Source: Escherichia phage vB_EcoM_G2540. From it: 64,000 nucleotides of DNA. Shown in pieces: positions 47,685-55,308 of this stretch. Each line of letters begins with the position of its first letter. Positions within the stretch are counted from its first letter, which is position 1. The notes beneath the pieces were generated by a model. The model did not search any database and was not told the origin of the DNA. It saw nothing but the letters and a program-made list of their open reading frames with translations. Where the stretch lies: sequence record MK327936.1; one strand, 5' to 3'. The position numbers and the translations under genes are program-made.

Positions 47685-47927
47685 TTATTCCTTAATTCCT
47701 AGTACTCGTTTAAAAGTCTCGTCGTAATCAAGACTTTGGCCCGTTTGTTCTTTATGTTTGTATATAATATCACTTACTTCTGATAGCATATTTTTATATG
47801 AACGAGTTAAAGCAGATTTAAGCACGCTGTATCTATCAGGAAATTTACCATGTTCATTATAATACGCTATTGCTAATTCACGGACTGCCTTTTCAGCAGT
47901 CTCCATATATTCTTTACGCTTTGTCAT
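47685..47927 (-). CDS. small hypothetical protein, 80 aa
   Basis: ORF. Confidence 0.4.
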
Positions 47928-47929
47928 TT

Positions 47930-48319
47930 TTAATCCAAAATATTATTAGGCATTGGTTGAACACTCACAAGTTCTTTAAAGAACTCAGTAGAATCAGGCA
48001 ATTTAACCATTTCCGGAGCATGCTTACTGAATTTATGTTTACATTGACGGCATTTATATTCAAGCTCTGGTTTACGCCAGTTAATCAATTGAACTTGTTC
48101 AGTACCGCATTCAGGGCAATTAGGAACGTTTTTAGAAGCTCTTTCACGTCGTTCAACCATAGCCATAATAGCATCCCATGCTGGAGGTTTAAAATCTAAA
48201 TCGTCGCAGCCGTGAATCTTTCCACGCATTTCCATATCATCTTCCTCACCAGCCATAATAATTTTAATTAAACTGGAATTACTTGAAGCTGCAATGTCTT
48301 CTAATAAACGCTTTTTCAT
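47930..48319 (-). CDS. zinc-ribbon protein, 129 aa
   Basis: CPECG...CRQCKH four-Cys motif. Confidence 0.45.
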
Positions 48320-49245
48320 TTCAATACCTCAATAGCATTACGTAAACCATTTGCTTTTGCATTAAGAGCTTTTAACAATTTGGTGTGTTCTGCAATTTGG
48401 GCTTCAACTCCAATCAAACGGGCATTGAGATATTCACGTTCTTCACTCAGATTATCAACCTTTTCTACTTTAGGCTCTTTTACAACTGTCTTATATGTAT
48501 TAGGGTTCTTCAGTTTAATTAGAATGCGTGAACTGTATAACATTGAATCATTATCTTCGGTTTCGTCATACATTTCTACTACATCCATAATTTTTAACAT
48601 CATGCGGAGTTTATAAGACAACGAACGAATAGTTTTGTTGTGCTTATTAATTTCTTTAGCTGTCATGGTGCCGAGATTACGTGAGTAATAATAAGGAACC
48701 TGGATATTAATTAATACTGATGAACCACCTGGCTTGTGTGTTACTTCATCAGCAATAACCCAGTCCTTAACATGAACTGTATTTGTACGGTCATCACCCG
48801 CGGTAAACAGTTTGCGAGCATGCTTAAAAAGCATATTCACTTGGTCATTGAATTGACAAGCAAATTTATCAGCAAATTTAGTTTCAGGAATGGTAGATAA
48901 CCAATCAGCCAAATGAGTCTTTTTAACATCGTTAACAATAGTAAATTCAACCAAATCGGTTATAGATGTCTCAGATTTAATAAAGCTCGGCTTCATAAAG
49001 TTTTTAATGTTATCGTGAGCTACAGTAGAAGATAACATACGAGAACGTTTAAACCATTCAAGCAAATTACCTAACGAATGAGAATAAGCGTTTTGAGTAT
49101 CTTTACAGATATGATTTTCCTGGCCAACATATTGAAGGAAATCACGAAGAATATTATTGATTACTGCTCTGTGTCCTATCTGATAATTACGGTGTTTAGT
49201 AATAAGACTGTCAAAATAATCAATATAATGTTTACGAGTTTTCAT
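48316..49245 (-). CDS. paralogue family member 1 (C-terminal coiled coil), 309 aa
   Basis: N-terminus MKTRKH...; C-terminal heptad-like ...[42 protein letters not shown]. Confidence 0.5.
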   Translation of the reverse strand: MKTRKHYIDYFDSLITKHRNYQIGHRAVINNILRDFLQYVGQENHICKDTQNAYSHSLGNLLEWFKRSRMLSSTVAHDNIKNFMKPSFIKSETSITDLVEFTIVNDVKKTHLADWLSTIPETKFADKFACQFNDQVNMLFKHARKLFTAGDDRTNTVHVKDWVIADEVTHKPGGSSVLINIQVPYYYSRNLGTMTAKEINKHNKTIRSLSYKLRMMLKIMDVVEMYDETEDNDSMLYSSRILIKLKNPNTYKTVVKEPKVEKVDNLSEEREYLNARLIGVEAQIAEHTKLLKALNAKANGLRNAIEVLK

Positions 49246-49297
49246 GTTCTTCTCACTTGGTTAATGGTTTATACTCCGAGCCATCCTTGGCTTTAAA

Positions 49298-50299
49298 TTA
49301 CTTAATTAACTGTAAAGCTTGTTCAAGACGATCAAGACGATTAACGGATTCTTCCCAAATCTTTTTAGCCTGCTCATATTCTTTCTGCGCTTTATTAGAA
49401 ATTTCTAGAACTTCTTTATAAGCTTTTTCTAGTGCAATAACTTCTGGACGAATTTCTACCGGTTCAGGAGAATCATCAAGATTATCCATTAGTTCCTCAA
49501 GGGTAGTTTCTTCTTTAGGAGTATTCACAATTTCATCACATTTTTGTTGGTAAATTTCTTTATCAGTCGGTGAGTACGCACACTTTACTTCACGAAGACT
49601 AATTATAATTTTATATCCTTCCCATCCACACATATTTTTGAAAGGATATGTATGAATACTTTTTACAGTTTCCATACAGCCCAAAGCCGTCTCTAATTGA
49701 TGAGTTATAGTGCTAGCAATTGAGAAAAATTTATTAATGTTCTTTTGGTTAGTTTCTGGTGTAAAAAATCCATAATTCACAAAAATAGCTACTTTATTTT
49801 TATCAAGTTCATATTCTTTTATGATAATCATATCAGAAGCCAAAGGATGAATTTGACGATAATCGCCATAGCATAATTTAGAAGCTGATTTTAGAATTTG
49901 CTTCTTAAAAAGTCTGAAATTACTAATCCAACGACGAGTAAAAATATTCTCAGGGTCTTCTTTATTATTAAGATGATAAGAATTAACATCACCGAACCAA
50001 TTATATCCTACTACATCTTTGGTTCGTTTAATTTCTTTCCCAAAATTACCAAGAATATCCCGATTAACCAAATATGAAAGAAGACGAGACTCTTTAAAGG
50101 TTTTCTTGATAACATCTTTATCTACACGGCTAGAAATTTTACGAATTTCATGAATAAATTTAGTAGAAGAAACAATACTTGCATCAACACTATTGAGCCA
50201 TTGATTGATAATAGAAAGAACGATATTTTGACCAAACATCGGTATAGCTTTATCATCAATAACGCTATTGAATGATTTGATATATTCGTTACGAGTCAT
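49298..50299 (-). CDS. paralogue family member 2, ~333 aa
   Basis: start trimmed to MTRNEYIKSF (GAGGAGA Shine-Dalgarno) because the ORF-track start overlaps the promoter; motif FRLFKKQILKSASKL; C-terminal coiled coil. Confidence 0.5.
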   Translation of the reverse strand: MTRNEYIKSFNSVIDDKAIPMFGQNIVLSIINQWLNSVDASIVSSTKFIHEIRKISSRVDKDVIKKTFKESRLLSYLVNRDILGNFGKEIKRTKDVVGYNWFGDVNSYHLNNKEDPENIFTRRWISNFRLFKKQILKSASKLCYGDYRQIHPLASDMIIIKEYELDKNKVAIFVNYGFFTPETNQKNINKFFSIASTITHQLETALGCMETVKSIHTYPFKNMCGWEGYKIIISLREVKCAYSPTDKEIYQQKCDEIVNTPKEETTLEELMDNLDDSPEPVEIRPEVIALEKAYKEVLEISNKAQKEYEQAKKIWEESVNRLDRLEQALQLIK

Positions 50300-50327
50300 A
50301 TTAATCTCCTCATTAGAAAGTAAGAAC

Positions 50328-50357
50328 ATTATACCACATCCTTGTGGCGAAGTAAAC
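50328..50357 (-). promoter_or_regulatory. T4-type early promoter (near-identical to the one at 2418-2447)
   Basis: plus gtaaac 50352-50357, 18-bp spacer, plus attata 50328-50333; block ataccacatccttgtgg..agtaaac shared with the rIIA.1 promoter. Confidence 0.55.
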
Positions 50358-51382
50358 TAGTTTAGTGCATTTAGTGCATTGTTCAGTTTAGAACGTTGCT
50401 TTGTCAGATTTTGAACCCTTGACTGAGCTTGTTCTAACACCTTTTCAGCTTCTAGCACTTCATTGGTCGCTTTAACGAGTTCATCATCTACTGCCTTAAG
50501 AGACTTCTCAATCGCGCCAGCGTGCCATTTTTCTACAGGTTTAAGACTCGGATTTTCAACAGGAAGAAAATTCACTTTATTGAATTTCCATGCATCATTA
50601 TTACCTGAACTATACATCCAAAATTTAGAATCGTTTGATGAGCAATTGGATAAATTTAAATTTAAGTTATCTTGCACTTCTTGCTTTTTCTCTTGCGGGA
50701 CTTCGTCCTTTCTCAAAAAATCGTATTTAAATGAAACAATCATATCAAGTTCATATGTTGTCGTATCTAACTTAAATCGTTCAAAACGAGGTAAAATCTT
50801 AGATTGAACAGCAGCAACAACATCCATATACTTAAATGCTTCTGTCAACTGTGATTTAAGGCATTCACAAATTGAAAGAGAATTTTTTGTATTAGGTTTA
50901 AAGCTAATTCGTGCAGTTCTGTTATTTTCTTTTAATGGTCTTACTTCCATCTGAAGAGTATAACCATCAAATTTCAGATTCTTTAAGTTAATATCAGAAC
51001 CTTTTAATCGACTAGCCGTCGACAAAATTTGCTTTAATTGTTTACGGAATAGAGCAATAAATCTCCACTCAATACGATAATGATTTGGATTAAAAAATCC
51101 TGTTGATAAATCAACCTTACTCTGACCAACGCCTTGAACAAATAGAGGATTTTTATAATCAATAGTTTTACAGAAATCGGTGAGCTGCTCACGAGCCGTC
51201 ATTTGTGTAATATACCCCGCTTTACTAAAATGACGTAACCATTCACTGCTATTCATATATTTAAAGTGAATATCACGATTAACTTTATCAGGGTCTAAAT
51301 TATTTTGGCACAAAAATGTCATAACATCACGAGTATAACTGGCATTACGAACCATATCTTCAATTTGAGAACGAGTTTTCAT
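50357..51382 (-). CDS. paralogue family member 3, 341 aa
   Basis: N-terminus MKTRSQ...; motif FIALFRKQLKQILSTASRL; C-terminal coiled coil ...VLEAEKVLEQAQSRVQNLTKQRSKLNNALNALN. Confidence 0.5.
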   Translation of the reverse strand: MKTRSQIEDMVRNASYTRDVMTFLCQNNLDPDKVNRDIHFKYMNSSEWLRHFSKAGYITQMTAREQLTDFCKTIDYKNPLFVQGVGQSKVDLSTGFFNPNHYRIEWRFIALFRKQLKQILSTASRLKGSDINLKNLKFDGYTLQMEVRPLKENNRTARISFKPNTKNSLSICECLKSQLTEAFKYMDVVAAVQSKILPRFERFKLDTTTYELDMIVSFKYDFLRKDEVPQEKKQEVQDNLNLNLSNCSSNDSKFWMYSSGNNDAWKFNKVNFLPVENPSLKPVEKWHAGAIEKSLKAVDDELVKATNEVLEAEKVLEQAQSRVQNLTKQRSKLNNALNALN

Positions 51383-51390
51383 GGTGTTCC

Positions 51391-52293
51391 TTAAAATTTA
51401 AGTAAATCAACGATTTTAATTAATTTTTCACGCTCAGATTTAGCTTTACTACTCAATCCAGATAGTCTGAAAATTTCATCATCATATTGCTGAATAGAAA
51501 TATTTAGCTCTTCAATCTGTTTATTAAAATAATCAATTTGTTCAGAATGTTTTTCGTTACTACGAACTGGTACAGGTTTTGTAGGCAATTTAGTTGAACT
51601 GGATTCATCCGGGCGATAAATTAAAATACAACTTGAACCAATAGGGCATTTTGCACCAGATGAATATTCTAATGTTCCGGCTTCTTTTAAAACTTCAAAA
51701 GCTAAACAGAGATGATGCCCCATATTGACATAATCTGTAGAGTGAGCTCTGATGTAATAATCATCTCCACGAGTACTAAATTTAAAGCATTTAAGGTCTT
51801 CTGTATTATTGGTCTTAAAAATCATTTGTTTATCTAGACCTTTAGCTAATCGAGCGCCTAATGCTAATAATCGTCGTTGATTTTCCCACAAATCCGCAAT
51901 CATTTGGTCAAATGATAATTTCGGCATTAGTCGACCATAAAGGTCATATCCTTTATTATAATTGCGAAGGATTTCACTCGCATTAATACGAGACAACGCT
52001 CCAATTTTATTAAGGGCTTTCATGATGCGATTAGATAAACCCATTCCAGATCCGTTTGTTCGTTGCAAATGTTTATCTAATCCAAACCCAATATCAACTT
52101 TAAATTTATCTAAAATTTCAGCATGAACATCTCTGTCAATAACATTCAAATCCAAAGTTGGGTTAAATCTATGAAAAAATTTATCTGGCTCTCCACGACG
52201 AAGTACAGTCCATTCATTTAATTTTTTATTAACTAAAGATTTAATTACTGCATTGACATTATTAATTACTACTGACATATTTTTCTCACTCAA
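51391..52293 (-). CDS. paralogue family member 4, 300 aa
   Basis: C-terminal coiled coil ...IEELNISIQQYDDEIFRLSGLSSKAKSEREKLIKIVDLLKF; weaker internal similarity. Confidence 0.45.
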   Translation of the reverse strand: MSEKNMSVVINNVNAVIKSLVNKKLNEWTVLRRGEPDKFFHRFNPTLDLNVIDRDVHAEILDKFKVDIGFGLDKHLQRTNGSGMGLSNRIMKALNKIGALSRINASEILRNYNKGYDLYGRLMPKLSFDQMIADLWENQRRLLALGARLAKGLDKQMIFKTNNTEDLKCFKFSTRGDDYYIRAHSTDYVNMGHHLCLAFEVLKEAGTLEYSSGAKCPIGSSCILIYRPDESSSTKLPTKPVPVRSNEKHSEQIDYFNKQIEELNISIQQYDDEIFRLSGLSSKAKSEREKLIKIVDLLKF

Positions 52294-52694
52294 TTTTCAA
52301 TTTTACTAAATACACAGAATATGATGGAAAAGACTATATAAGCACCGCATACAGATTGAACTAATACCATTCCAAAGAACCAAACAATATTATCAAACAA
52401 TGTCTGTTTTACGTCGAAAGGACGTAAACTTACAGTAATATTATCACCTTTTTCTATTGAAGAATACATCTCTGGGGAAATATATTCACTAAATCTATAA
52501 CCGTCTTTGAGTTCATATACAGCAATAAACGATAAACTAGACCCCTTTCCTTGAGTTCCTGTAAAGGTATTAACTACAGTAACATCATAATCTTTATAAT
52601 GCATATAATCATTAATTGCGTAATAACCATATGCAACTACTACACATAAACAACATATCAATAAATTCAATCTTTTAATTATCAACTGTTTCAT
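52290..52694 (-). CDS. membrane protein, 134 aa
   Basis: hydrophobic N- and C-terminal helices; stop overlaps the next start. Confidence 0.45.
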   Translation of the reverse strand: MKQLIIKRLNLLICCLCVVVAYGYYAINDYMHYKDYDVTVVNTFTGTQGKGSSLSFIAVYELKDGYRFSEYISPEMYSSIEKGDNITVSLRPFDVKQTLFDNIVWFFGMVLVQSVCGAYIVFSIIFCVFSKIEN

Positions 52695-52749
52695 AATAAT
52701 CTCAATTAAAAGGGCTTAGAACCATTATACCATCCTTGGTATAAAGCGG

Positions 52750-53277
52750 TTATGCGAGTACCGTCTTTAACCGTTCTTCAAACTTCCGAAGAGTATTCTG
52801 GCGTTCAGCTCTTTGCTTTTTGTAAGTTTCAATACGCTCTGAAATGAGAGTGTATCGTTCATTTACTGATTCTTTCATAAAATCAGGAATTTCACGAGAA
52901 GCTTTAATCTCGTCAAATTTATCAATAACTGCTTGCTCTTCAGCAATTAAGTTATCATACATCAAAATATCTTTCTTGATGAACTCAATATCTTCTTGAG
53001 TTACACGAGATAATTTAGATGCTTTATCCTTTTTGTACTGTTCGTTAGTATCACGAGACCAGTGTAATGTACGATTTTTATTCGTATTCTTGTAAATTTC
53101 TACAATACCAATCTCATCGATAATAACGATCCAATTCCAACGAGATTTGTAAATTTGTCCTCCGTCAACCGTGATTTCACCTCCGATTGAGATGTCATTA
53201 AAGAACTTGCTTTGTGCTTCAGATTTAAATTTACCATCGTTGTAATTTACCAGGTTGAAAATATCTTTAGCGTTCAT
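52750..53277 (-). CDS. hypothetical protein, 175 aa
   Basis: ORF with GGAGG Shine-Dalgarno; helical, charged C-terminus. Confidence 0.45.
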   Translation of the reverse strand: MNAKDIFNLVNYNDGKFKSEAQSKFFNDISIGGEITVDGGQIYKSRWNWIVIIDEIGIVEIYKNTNKNRTLHWSRDTNEQYKKDKASKLSRVTQEDIEFIKKDILMYDNLIAEEQAVIDKFDEIKASREIPDFMKESVNERYTLISERIETYKKQRAERQNTLRKFEERLKTVLA

Positions 53278-53305
53278 TTTGTGTTCCTCCGTAGTTGATA
53301 GTTGT

Positions 53306-53335
53306 ATAGTACCACAGAGGAACAGTCTTGTAAAC
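53306..53335 (-). promoter_or_regulatory. T4-type early promoter (repeated cassette family)
   Basis: plus gtaaac 53330-53335, 18-bp spacer, plus atagta 53306-53311; shares the gtagttgatagttgtatagtacca block. Confidence 0.5.
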
Positions 53336-53337
53336 CA

Positions 53338-53652
53338 CTAAAAGAAACTTCTTTCACAATTTTTTCCACTGAACCATGCGCTTACCGCTTTCTTAGTCTC
53401 AGGAGCAGTGTTATCCATAAACCATTCAAAGGCAGCCTTTTTATGATTCTGGAGGGCTTCTCGGGCTTTAATCTGCTCACGGTCTATTAACACTAACATA
53501 TGAGCCTTTCTTGTCACCATGGGCTTCTTATGATTTTTTGAATACTCCCAGTCATTTGTCCATCGCATTGTCGTTGCGAACTTAAATACTGCTTCTTTAA
53601 TTTTAGTTTCGTAAATTTCACGAGCCTTTGAGTATAACATCATTACCTCCAT
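53338..53652 (-). CDS. hypothetical protein, 104 aa
   Basis: ORF. Confidence 0.4.
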   Translation of the reverse strand: MEVMMLYSKAREIYETKIKEAVFKFATTMRWTNDWEYSKNHKKPMVTRKAHMLVLIDREQIKAREALQNHKKAAFEWFMDNTAPETKKAVSAWFSGKNCERSFF

Positions 53653-53742
53653 TCACCAGTTTAATTCTAGTCATCTTTTTAATGGCAGTCCATATAATCT
53701 ATTTCTGAACTGCCTTTTTGTCATAGAAGTCCTCTTATGAAT

Positions 53743-54711
53743 TTATTTCAGAAGAGTAACCTCAGCGATTTCTTCCCAACCGTTTTTGTCGGTCATAATA
53801 AAGTCAGCAAGATAAAGAGCAGTACGCAGTGAAACATTGCGTAAACGATTAACATTAACTTTCATCCATGATAATGCTTTATAAGTTTCTTCATCAGAAA
53901 GACCGCGCTTTTGCATCATGTCGGTTGAAAGAATAACATCTTCAACCCTGACCATAATTTCTTCATTAGTGTGAACACCCAAATCTAAATAAACTGAGCG
54001 GGACACTAATGCTTGTAAATGTGGAGCAAGTTTAGTACCGCGGTCTAATTCGCGGTCAATGTCAACGTTTGTGATAAAAACAATCGTTCCTTTAAATTCA
54101 AACTCACGGTCAATGCCTTTTTCTTCTAAGTAAGAAGATGCAGTGCTCCAGCAGACTTTACGGGTCTCTCCAGTGTCCAGAGCAGCTTTTAGAAGATTAA
54201 GAATGTCCATATCAGAGAAAACATCCACATCATCAATCAAAAGGACAGAGTTCTCTTCACGATTATACCAAAGCTGCTCATAAAGACCAATACCAGAGAT
54301 TTTACCATTAATGCTTTTATATTCAATGTATCCAATATCGTTTGCTTTATTTAAAGCTTTATCTAAAGAATACGTTTTACCAATACCTGCTGCGCCAGAG
54401 ATAATTAATGAACGAATATTTCCATTAATAATACCATTCGTCATCATTCCCATAACATTAAATCTTTTATTAATGCGGGTTTTCATATCTTCATATGATT
54501 CTTTAACTTCTTCAACTTTTACACCATCATATGAAATATCTGATTTGTAAACCCAAACACCACGACGTTTACCGTCAATTTCAACAAAAACTTTACCATC
54601 TCCTTGTGCATCTACCGGAGCATTATCTGGGAACCATTCGCCTAAGAGCTCAAAAGTTCCAGAGATTTCTTTACCGAAGTAGATACCCTTATTGATAGTT
54701 ACAGTTTTCAT
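53743..54711 (-). CDS. P-loop AAA+-type ATPase, ~322 aa
   Basis: Walker A SGAAGIGKTYSL and Walker B VLLIDDVD; start placed at MKTVTINKG (GGAGAA Shine-Dalgarno). Confidence 0.55.
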   Translation of the reverse strand: MKTVTINKGIYFGKEISGTFELLGEWFPDNAPVDAQGDGKVFVEIDGKRRGVWVYKSDISYDGVKVEEVKESYEDMKTRINKRFNVMGMMTNGIINGNIRSLIISGAAGIGKTYSLDKALNKANDIGYIEYKSINGKISGIGLYEQLWYNREENSVLLIDDVDVFSDMDILNLLKAALDTGETRKVCWSTASSYLEEKGIDREFEFKGTIVFITNVDIDRELDRGTKLAPHLQALVSRSVYLDLGVHTNEEIMVRVEDVILSTDMMQKRGLSDEETYKALSWMKVNVNRLRNVSLRTALYLADFIMTDKNGWEEIAEVTLLK

Positions 54712-54747
54712 TTTATTCTCCAATCTCACATTTGTTTTGATAGGGTA

Positions 54748-54777
54748 ATAGTATCACACTACTACCCTTTTGTAAAC
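54748..54777 (-). promoter_or_regulatory. T4-type early promoter
   Basis: plus gtaaac 54772-54777, 18-bp spacer, plus atagta 54748-54753. Confidence 0.5.
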
Positions 54778-54780
54778 AAT

Positions 54781-55044
54781 TTATTTTAACGTTCGCCAAA
54801 TTTTTACTGCTTCACGGCGAGATACTTCTACAGCTCCAAGTTCTACAGCTTTTTGGCGTCGGCGAGCGTGTAAGTCATAATGTTTAATGCGTTTATCTTG
54901 AAACCAAGAACGTTTCATTCCTATTGCTTCTGCCATTTCATGAAGCTCTTCAATATCTCCATCAGTGAACATATGACAATTTTTAGTTGGATGACCGCGA
55001 AGTTTCCATCCATGATTCATTAAAACATCTACGTAAACTGTCAT
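54781..55044 (-). CDS. hypothetical protein, 87 aa
   Basis: ORF; His/Arg-rich. Confidence 0.4.
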   Translation of the reverse strand: MTVYVDVLMNHGWKLRGHPTKNCHMFTDGDIEELHEMAEAIGMKRSWFQDKRIKHYDLHARRRQKAVELGAVEVSRREAVKIWRTLK

Positions 55045-55282: not shown

Positions 55283-55308
55283 AAAAAAGGGAGCCCGAAG
55301 GCTCCCTA
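55283..55308 (-). terminator. intrinsic terminator
   Basis: agggagc-ccgaa-ggctccct hairpin followed on the transcript by UUUUUUUAUUU; 3' of the 328-aa ORF. Confidence 0.6.

Follow-up and report, generated by a model that had tools for sequence, protein, structure and literature searches.

The stretch of DNA analysed here (the window) is 64,000 nucleotides from Escherichia phage vB_EcoM_G2540 (MK327936.1). Sequence comparison places it in a Tequatrovirus (T4-like) genome. Four head-to-tail open reading frames (ORFs) on the minus strand of the window form an array; they are nrdC.3, nrdC.4, nrdC.5 and nrdC.6, accessory genes of the T4 type that are early and non-essential. Three of the four share common descent, and the fourth, nrdC.6, very probably belongs to the same superfamily. 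One member, nrdC.5, is the orthologue of the T4 anti-Dsr1 factor; the others are candidate counter-defence genes.

The array is flanked by nrdC.2 and nrdC.7 and belongs to the early region that extends from nrdC.11 as far as nrdC and gene 49. Over the 4.7 kb around it, the window shares 97.9% identity with Escherichia phage vB_Eco_NR1, whose record names the four genes NrdC.3, NrdC.4, NrdC.5 and NrdC.6; matches to this segment occur in 656 phage records. The gene nrdC.3 (48316..49245) encodes 309 amino acids (aa) with an isoelectric point (pI) of 9.3, and is identified by its ORF and by annotation in related records. The gene nrdC.4 (49298..50299; 333 aa, pI 7.6) begins with an ATG behind a GAGGAG site. 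These are followed by nrdC.5 (50357..51382; 341 aa, pI 9.3) and nrdC.6 (51391..52278; 295 aa, pI 9.2), the most divergent member. An earlier note, made from the sequence alone, had located all four co-directional ORFs, and two of its details are amended here. The upper length in its range, 343 aa, is that of a longer nrdC.4 ORF, which opens inside the -10 box of a promoter; ATG 50299 is the real start. The note had begun nrdC.6 at TTG 52293; the start is instead ATG 52278, which opens an M-S-x-x-I-N beginning that is invariant among homologues. The two proteins which it had described as starting with MKTR are those of nrdC.3 and nrdC.5; nrdC.4 starts with MTR. Protein masses are 34-40 kDa. Three of the four (nrdC.3, nrdC.5 and nrdC.6) are basic, with a pI of about 9.2 and a net charge of +8 to +11; the tails are neutral to acidic.

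Family libraries keep these proteins in three unrelated families of unknown function. PHROG 1435 (phrog_1435) and Pfam PF26897 hold both nrdC.3 and nrdC.4, PHROG 2351 holds nrdC.5, and PHROG 2257 (phrog_2257) and Pfam PF26899 hold nrdC.6. In addition, nrdC.5 matches Pfam DUF7235 (PF23882) with 398.8 bits over residues 1-341, the gathering threshold being 30 bits; in the same Pfam scan nrdC.3, nrdC.4 and nrdC.6 fall below that threshold.

The earlier note had also placed an early promoter inside the array. A pattern scan finds an early-type promoter, GTTTAC-N17-(TG)TATAAT, on the minus strand between nrdC.5 and nrdC.4 (50328..50356, reading from 50356 to 50328). It agrees with the T4 early sigma-70 consensus at 10 of 12 positions, plus the TG. 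It should be noted that this is a consensus match only, and that promoter-like sites in the region are no commoner than in shuffled sequence. The gene nrdC.5 has been termed an early gene (PMC9391042). Further along the minus strand are three near-identical promoter-like sites, TTTACA-17-TACTAT with TG, at 55256-55228, 54776-54748 and 53334-53306; they lie in the gaps upstream of ORF 54781-55044, nrdC.10 and nrdC.8, respectively. These sites suggest that there are several early promoters along the region. A strong GC-rich hairpin (AGGGAGCC-TTCG-GGCTCCCT) at 55288-55307, with a minus-strand run of T residues after it, is likely to be an intrinsic terminator; it is upstream of the promoter-like site at 55256-55228.

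Relationships among the four proteins

Orthologues were gathered from 13 viral contigs, from protein searches and from four further phage records, and the resulting family profiles were compared with hhalign. In pairwise BLASTP the one pair to be detected is nrdC.3 and nrdC.4, which share 24% identity over 225 aa (E 6e-6); all other pairs give noise. The profiles link nrdC.3, nrdC.4 and nrdC.5 directly. The comparison of nrdC.3 with nrdC.4 has a probability of 98.6% (P 1.4e-15, 212 columns) and that of nrdC.4 with nrdC.5 a probability of 90.8% (P 1.2e-6, 239 columns). For nrdC.3 and nrdC.5 it is 76.6% (P 2e-5), over 125 columns in the globular part, residues 62-201. The similarity among these three profiles covers the globular part and is thus not confined to the tail. 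Five neighbouring genes used as controls, including nrdC.8, gave P values of at least 0.05. When six family hidden Markov models (HMMs) were run against all 147 ORFs in the window, the best cross-hits were members of the array, except with the nrdC.6 profile, which found nothing significant among those ORFs besides nrdC.6 itself. Common descent of nrdC.3, nrdC.4 and nrdC.5 is thereby shown.

Two wider searches were made with these three families. A mixed nrdC.3/4/5 alignment in a word-indexed protein search returned 71 proteins and missed the divergent nrdC.5 cluster and the Tequatrovirus nrdC.3 and nrdC.4 clusters; diversity was taken from the loci instead. An exhaustive HMMER search of 1.84 billion representatives with the nrdC.3/4/5 profile found 17 relatives, none of them of the nrdC.6 type. 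The neighbouring gene nrdC.8 (52750-53277) encodes 175 aa and ends in a long charged helix (…ERIETYKKQRAERQNTLRKFEERLKTVLA). It was considered as a fifth member and rejected, since hhalign gives P 0.12-0.65 despite the helical tail.

The position of nrdC.6 is less direct. Compared with nrdC.3, nrdC.4 and nrdC.5 by hhalign it gives P 0.0016-0.16, which is not significant, and HMMER likewise finds no significant similarity to these three. Bridging families are therefore needed. They are provided by single-copy genes at the same genome position as the array: a 335-337-aa protein of Kanagawavirus phages (IME523 and PEi26) and a 315-aa protein of Marfavirus (Klebsiella phage F48). The nrdC.6 family matches the Kanagawavirus protein with a probability of 77.5% (P 1.9e-5, 157 columns). 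The Kanagawavirus protein matches that of Marfavirus at 97% (P 9e-11). The Marfavirus protein in turn matches nrdC.4 and nrdC.5 at about 95% (nrdC.4 95.5%), with P about 1e-8. The alignment of the nrdC.6 HMM with the IME523 protein begins at the core motif, continues through the tail and reaches the C-terminus, and so extends beyond the coil. The MAFFT alignment A5, which takes in all clades, is colinear and has five motif blocks in common.

It could be argued that nrdC.6 is not a paralogue and merely has a generic layout, a helical domain plus a terminal helix, like that of its neighbours. The direct comparisons are consistent with this, as are the lack of nrdC.6-type proteins among the relatives recovered by the nrdC.3/4/5 profile and the separate family which both Pfam and PHROGs maintain. 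We consider it unlikely. The transitive chain, the reach of the IME523 alignment from motif to tail and the colinear blocks all stand against it, as do the predicted folds described below; and nrdC.8, which has a helical tail too, gives no signal. Membership of nrdC.6 in a superfamily with nrdC.3-nrdC.5 is accordingly held with high, though not complete, confidence, and we conclude that the evidence joins the library families into one superfamily. The four genes and the function of nrdC.5 were already known. The joining of three library families into one four-gene superfamily with a defined architecture was not encountered in any library or paper covered by the search, and neither were its single-copy relatives or the natural chimeras.

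In the Kanagawavirus and Marfavirus phages examined, a conserved protein of 256-257 aa (MLTKIINDLFEENRKAHREHRAKVEKRAEE…) is encoded a few genes upstream of the single nrdC.3-6-like gene (L015:4247-5017, L016:4269-5042 and L017:3664-4434 in our numbered loci). By HMM comparison it is unrelated to the nrdC.3-6 family.

An internal helix motif common to the four proteins was part of the earlier description, and the alignments bear this out: the motifs occupy homologous positions and form one block in A5, and they also align by hhalign and HMM. All are on the minus strand. In nrdC.3 the motif is FNDQVNMLFKHARKL (48808..48852, aa 132-146), which aligns with the other three in alignments A2 and A5. 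In nrdC.4 it is FRLFKKQILKSASKL (49874..49918, aa 128-142), aligned by hhalign/HMM and in A2 and A5. The nrdC.5 form, FRKQLKQILSTASRL (51005..51049, aa 112-126), is also aligned in A2 and A5 and falls within the predicted helices at residues 104-127. The nrdC.6 form, LWENQRRLLALGARL (51847..51891, aa 130-144), is nearly invariant among orthologues; it aligns with NYNWRMILTLGSRL of IME523 and with the A5 motif block. The block has the form F-x(4-5)-(I/L)-L-x-x-(A/G)-(S/A)-(R/K)-L.

Each protein ends in a heptad-like tail, again as described earlier. Contrast in hydrophobicity between a/d and other positions was computed from family profiles of the last 49-56 residues and compared with 2000 column shuffles. 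P is at most 0.0015 for three of the families and 0.023 for nrdC.4. If a/d periodicity over at least 4 heptads of a predicted helix is taken as the mark of a coiled coil, the tails are coiled-coil-like. The hydrophobic period of the profiles is 3.45-3.51 residues in all four tails, and the a/d contrast is far above the column shuffles for nrdC.3, nrdC.5 and both single-copy clades. The nrdC.3 heptad-repeat tail (48319..48465, minus strand; aa 261-309) has a contrast of 0.67 against 0.20 in column shuffles, none of which reach the observed value, and a period of 3.45 residues; for the single sequence, the observed heptad score is reached by 1.5% of shuffles. The nrdC.4 tail (49301..49447, minus strand; aa 285-333) has the weakest heptad signal of the four, with a contrast of 0.36 and a period of 3.48. 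The C-terminal helix of nrdC.5 (50360..50530, minus strand; aa 285-341) has a contrast of 0.67, which none of the 2000 shuffles reach. The nrdC.6 tail (51394..51555, minus strand; aa 242-295) is a helix-break-helix, with P = 0.0015 in the family profile. In A5 the tails have a common ending, ...(R)-x-K-L-x-x-A-x-x-x-L-K. Sequence matches of the tail in the PDB were discarded as noise of the tropomyosin and myosin type. The picture of a diverged body and a better-kept tail, which the earlier note had drawn, holds within families.

AlphaFold2 monomer models cover nrdC.5 and nrdC.6 with moderate confidence; their mean predicted local distance difference test (pLDDT) values are 68 and 79. The nrdC.5 model has a helical N-domain (1-127), a beta hairpin-helix-beta hairpin (143-218), a low-confidence linker (226-284) and a single 56-aa terminal helix (285-340, pLDDT 78-92). 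The nrdC.6 model has a helical N-domain (1-150), a beta hairpin-helix-beta hairpin (167-221), a low-confidence linker (227-242) and a tail in two helices of 30 and 18 aa with a break. The predicted order of elements is thus identical: helical domain, beta-beta-alpha-beta-beta, linker and C-terminal helix of 45-57 aa. In Foldseek searches of BFVD, the nrdC.5 model matches the NrdC.6 model of JS10 (E 2.2e-5) and an NrdC.6-like protein of Sf25, and the nrdC.6 model matches the 335-aa protein of IME523 (E 9.2e-7); the JS10 and IME523 matches extend over more than 300 columns. Both models also match the same uncharacterised proteins, from phages Acj61, fHe-Yen9-01, Mineola and Merlin. The TM-scores are low (0.3-0.45), as is expected because these are multi-domain models with flexible linkers. 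The fold evidence is supportive of the superfamily, not decisive. No solved relative was found.

Apart from family members, residues ~143-225 of the nrdC.5 model give weak Foldseek matches (E 4e-3 to 3e-2, with probabilities of up to 0.99) to phage proteins that are labelled 'tail completion', 'head-to-tail connector' and 'minor tail'; these serve as a lead only. Tail-completion or connector-type matches are absent for the nrdC.6 model. The predicted beta-domain of nrdC.5 may have a virion-protein-like fold.

Copy number, sequence evolution and natural chimeras

The number of family genes differs between the groups of phages. There is one in the Kanagawavirus (IME523, PEi26) and Marfavirus (F48) phages examined. 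There are three (nrdC.6, nrdC.5 and nrdC.4) in nine of the numbered loci, L006-L014, the proteins of which match those of JS98/JS10 and VR-type phages. Mosigvirus (ATK48) also has three, with a nrdC.3-type gene in place of nrdC.4 next to nrdC.6 and nrdC.5. Tequatrovirus has all four. The four genes probably descend from one ancestral gene which is still single-copy in the Kanagawavirus and Marfavirus phages examined. In a tblastn search of a phage collection, nrdC.3-type genes were found in 653 records, nrdC.4 in 553, nrdC.5 in 579 and nrdC.6 in 741.

The earlier note had called the family diversifying. The ratio of nonsynonymous to synonymous substitutions (dN/dS) was computed across five Tequatrovirus loci. 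For nrdC.3, nrdC.4 and nrdC.5 it is 0.2-0.39 in the highest comparisons and 0.08-0.19 in the closest pairs; for gene 49, nrdC, nrdC.8, nrdC.9 and nrdC.10 it is mostly 0-0.1. These three members evolve faster than their neighbours, without gene-wide positive selection. The term is therefore weakly supported: it fits nrdC.3, nrdC.4 and nrdC.5 in so far as their ratios exceed those of the neighbours, but these are well below 1, and nrdC.6 (0.04-0.14) is conserved.

The nrdC.3 gene (48316-49245) occurs in several forms. At least 90% identity is found in 357 records, and 60-80% in 182, including the ATK48-type Mosigvirus gene; a further form, about 60% identical, is found in phages which include Tequatrovirus. 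The adjacent gene nrdC.2 (47930-48319), which is zinc-ribbon-like, also has variants of 65-83%, and the flanking genes are more than 97% identical. This suggests that a nrdC.2/nrdC.3 segment is exchanged as a mosaic.

Among viable phages, the array is a hot spot for deletions. In Salmonella phage Manna (L020:4215-5252), nrdC.5 is deleted and residues 1-262 of nrdC.6 are fused in frame to residues 251-333 of nrdC.4 at a DDEI/CDEI microhomology junction. The product is a nrdC.6 body on the nrdC.4 linker and tail, a ready-made tail-swap. In ACG-C40 (L019:4805-5216), nrdC.5 runs as far as codon ~68 and is then joined, out of frame, to the final ~72 codons of nrdC.3; most of nrdC.5, the whole of nrdC.4 and most of nrdC.3 are lost. 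Pinarejo (L021:5001-5138) retains only the last 46 codons of nrdC.6. In a G8-type phage (L005:8950-9982), a frameshift divides nrdC.4, leaving ORFs of 193 and 158 aa. There are also two chimeric metagenomic proteins. P0056 joins residues 145-273 of nrdC.5 to residues 137-309 of nrdC.3; P0176 joins an N-terminus which matches nothing in the window to a nrdC.5 tail. These natural deletion and fusion variants show that each member is dispensable, contrary to an obligate complex of four subunits.

Counter-defence and comparison with known systems

The earlier note had suggested that the family might serve in host takeover or counter-defence and could assign none of the genes to a characterised T4 protein. 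The latter was mistaken: the genes are nrdC.3-nrdC.6, and the function of nrdC.5 has been published. An evolved T4 clone with compensatory deletions stopped plating on ECOR17 (Srikant, Guegler and Laub, eLife 2022; PMC9391042). Deletion of dsr1 in ECOR17 restored plating, and cloned dsr1 protected MG1655; T4 nrdC.5 supplied in trans restores plating of the T4 deletion clone on cells with the ECOR17 Dsr1 (PMC9391042). NrdC.5 of the window is 94% identical to T4 NrdC.5. Counter-defence is thus well founded for nrdC.5, and an extrapolation for the other three. The literature searched holds nothing beyond genome notes on nrdC.3, nrdC.4 and nrdC.6, which we treat as candidate counter-defence genes.

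Dsr1 is a SIR2-type NADase. It is still called poorly characterised in a 2026 paper. Its TPR sensor is homologous to that of Avs7 (2026 preprint, PMC12803255), and in a co-expression screen the trigger of E. coli Dsr1 was the phage ZL19 major capsid protein (PMC12803255).

Several properties bear on how the family might act. The sole near-invariant polar residue across the superfamily alignment is Arg4, in the N-terminal TR motif. As there is this residue alone and no catalytic constellation, binding is favoured over catalysis. Pfam, NCBIfam and PADLOC scans gave no informative domains, and the PADLOC defence-system models in particular gave chance-level matches only (E 0.003-0.05, 12-14 bits). 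The lack of a domain in these libraries and of a solved relative therefore favours a stoichiometric binder over an enzyme. A weak match of nrdC.3 to Phage_int_SAM_1 (XerD N-terminal) was rejected, as only one of 20 family members shows it. Apart from nrdC.4 the proteins are basic, and their tails are neutral to acidic; thus, they are not acidic DNA mimics.

We propose that the family acts by stoichiometric binding and without enzymatic activity. Its members would be produced early, ahead of the late structural proteins which trigger the sensors. Each globular body would attach to an immune protein of the host; for NrdC.5 this would be Dsr1, which would already be occupied when the late trigger appears. 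Oligomerisation of the inhibitor would fall to the coiled-coil tail, and the paralogues may have become different so as to deal with different targets or variants. Action by binding, oligomerisation and an anti-defence role of nrdC.3, nrdC.4 and nrdC.6 are all proposed rather than observed features. Taken whole, from one ancestral gene with a shared architecture to anti-immune binders with oligomerising tails, the account strikes us as somewhat more probable than not.

A number of observations weigh against it. Functional evidence is limited to nrdC.5, and nrdC.6 is tied to the others through intermediates only. The tail in the nrdC.6 monomer model appears folded back as an intramolecular hairpin, and both the TM-scores and the pLDDT values of the models are modest. 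A pI of about 9.2 would suit the binding of nucleic acid no less than that of protein, and dN/dS over whole genes stays below 1. The central motif of nrdC.6 is nearly invariant across orthologues down to about 43% identity and its dN/dS is low, so that nrdC.6 looks more like a protein with a conserved partner than one in an arms race.

Some of these observations would suit other explanations. It may be that only nrdC.5 is a counter-defence protein and that nrdC.3, nrdC.4 and nrdC.6 use the same scaffold for other early purposes, such as binding nucleic acid of host or phage, or a conserved host protein, during host takeover. The basic charge of nrdC.3 and nrdC.6, which nrdC.5 shares, would fit this, as would the silence of the literature on these three and the nearly invariant 25-residue core motif of nrdC.6, with its low dN/dS. 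However, Pfam and NCBIfam scans detect no nucleic-acid-binding domain, the single weak domain match (integrase SAM-like) being the rejected one; members are naturally dispensable in Manna, Pinarejo and ACG-C40; and the one characterised member is anti-defence. We regard this explanation as possible but not likely. It is more doubtful still that the paralogues act as a unit, each contributing a subunit to a single hetero-oligomeric complex which the coiled-coil tails hold together. The order nrdC.6 - nrdC.5 - nrdC.4 (in ATK48 with the nrdC.3-type gene) is indeed kept in Tequatrovirus, in ATK48 (Mosigvirus) and in JS98/VR-type loci, and the tails are similar in length and all end ...L-x-x-(A/I)-x-x-L-K. 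Nevertheless, plasmid-expressed nrdC.5 alone restored infection (PMC9391042). In addition, there are viable phages without single members (nrdC.6 in Pinarejo, nrdC.5 in Manna and the frameshifted nrdC.4 in the G8-type phage), ACG-C40 lacks three, and the Kanagawavirus and Marfavirus phages examined carry a single copy.

Redox activity has practically nothing to recommend it. In the window, the nrdC.N genes from nrdC.1 to nrdC.11 (47685-55044) are of the kind labelled 'thioredoxin' in many GenBank records, and on that label the four proteins would be thioredoxin-like redox proteins. The translations of all four lack a CxxC motif, there is no thioredoxin or glutaredoxin family match in Pfam or NCBIfam, and the models of nrdC.5 and nrdC.6 do not have a predicted thioredoxin fold. 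The label is evidently a propagated misannotation; nrdC.N names record only position beside nrdC.

The proposal of stoichiometric binders can be taken further, although what follows is speculative and rather improbable. The nrdC.3-nrdC.6 genes could be a modular anti-sensor family in many T4-like (Straboviridae) phages, with a swappable, fast-evolving body which pre-emptively occupies sensors. The targets would be pattern-recognition immune proteins that detect virion proteins, for example Dsr1 and related TPR-sensor proteins. The body may mimic a virion protein, given the weak Foldseek matches of the nrdC.5 beta-domain. The conserved coiled-coil tail would give oligomeric avidity, and recombination between paralogues would yield new body-tail combinations, of which the Manna nrdC.6::nrdC.4 fusion could be an instance.

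In the literature searched, no factor other than NrdC.5 is named as a specific counter to Dsr1. If the four genes are one family with a single architecture, nrdC.3, nrdC.4 and nrdC.6 are themselves direct candidates for other functions in counter-defence. The boundaries of body, linker and tail can be tested in studies of mechanism. There are also single-copy relatives in other T4-like genera, and the natural chimeras are ready-made domain-swap experiments. The widespread 'thioredoxin' misannotation of nrdC.3-nrdC.6 is also flagged.

Of the known systems, T4 NrdC.5 (DUF7235) is the closest. The nrdC.5 of the window is its orthologue, in the same position between nrdC.6 and nrdC.4, and does not differ from it in these respects; nrdC.3, nrdC.4 and nrdC.6 are related to T4 NrdC.5 at the profile-profile or fold level only. 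The phage NAD+ reconstitution pathways NARP1, NARP2 and NARP3 also overcome Dsr1 and other NAD+-depleting systems. However, these are enzymes that rebuild NAD+, whereas nrdC.3-nrdC.6 have neither conserved residues of a catalytic type nor an enzyme domain. DSAD1 of SPbeta-like Bacillus phages is alike in outcome. DSR2 is reported to recognise the phage tail tube protein and DSAD1 to repress DSR2; homology of DSAD1 to the nrdC.3-nrdC.6 family was not found. The resemblance is that DSAD1 too neutralises a SIR2-domain NADase with a virion-protein sensor.

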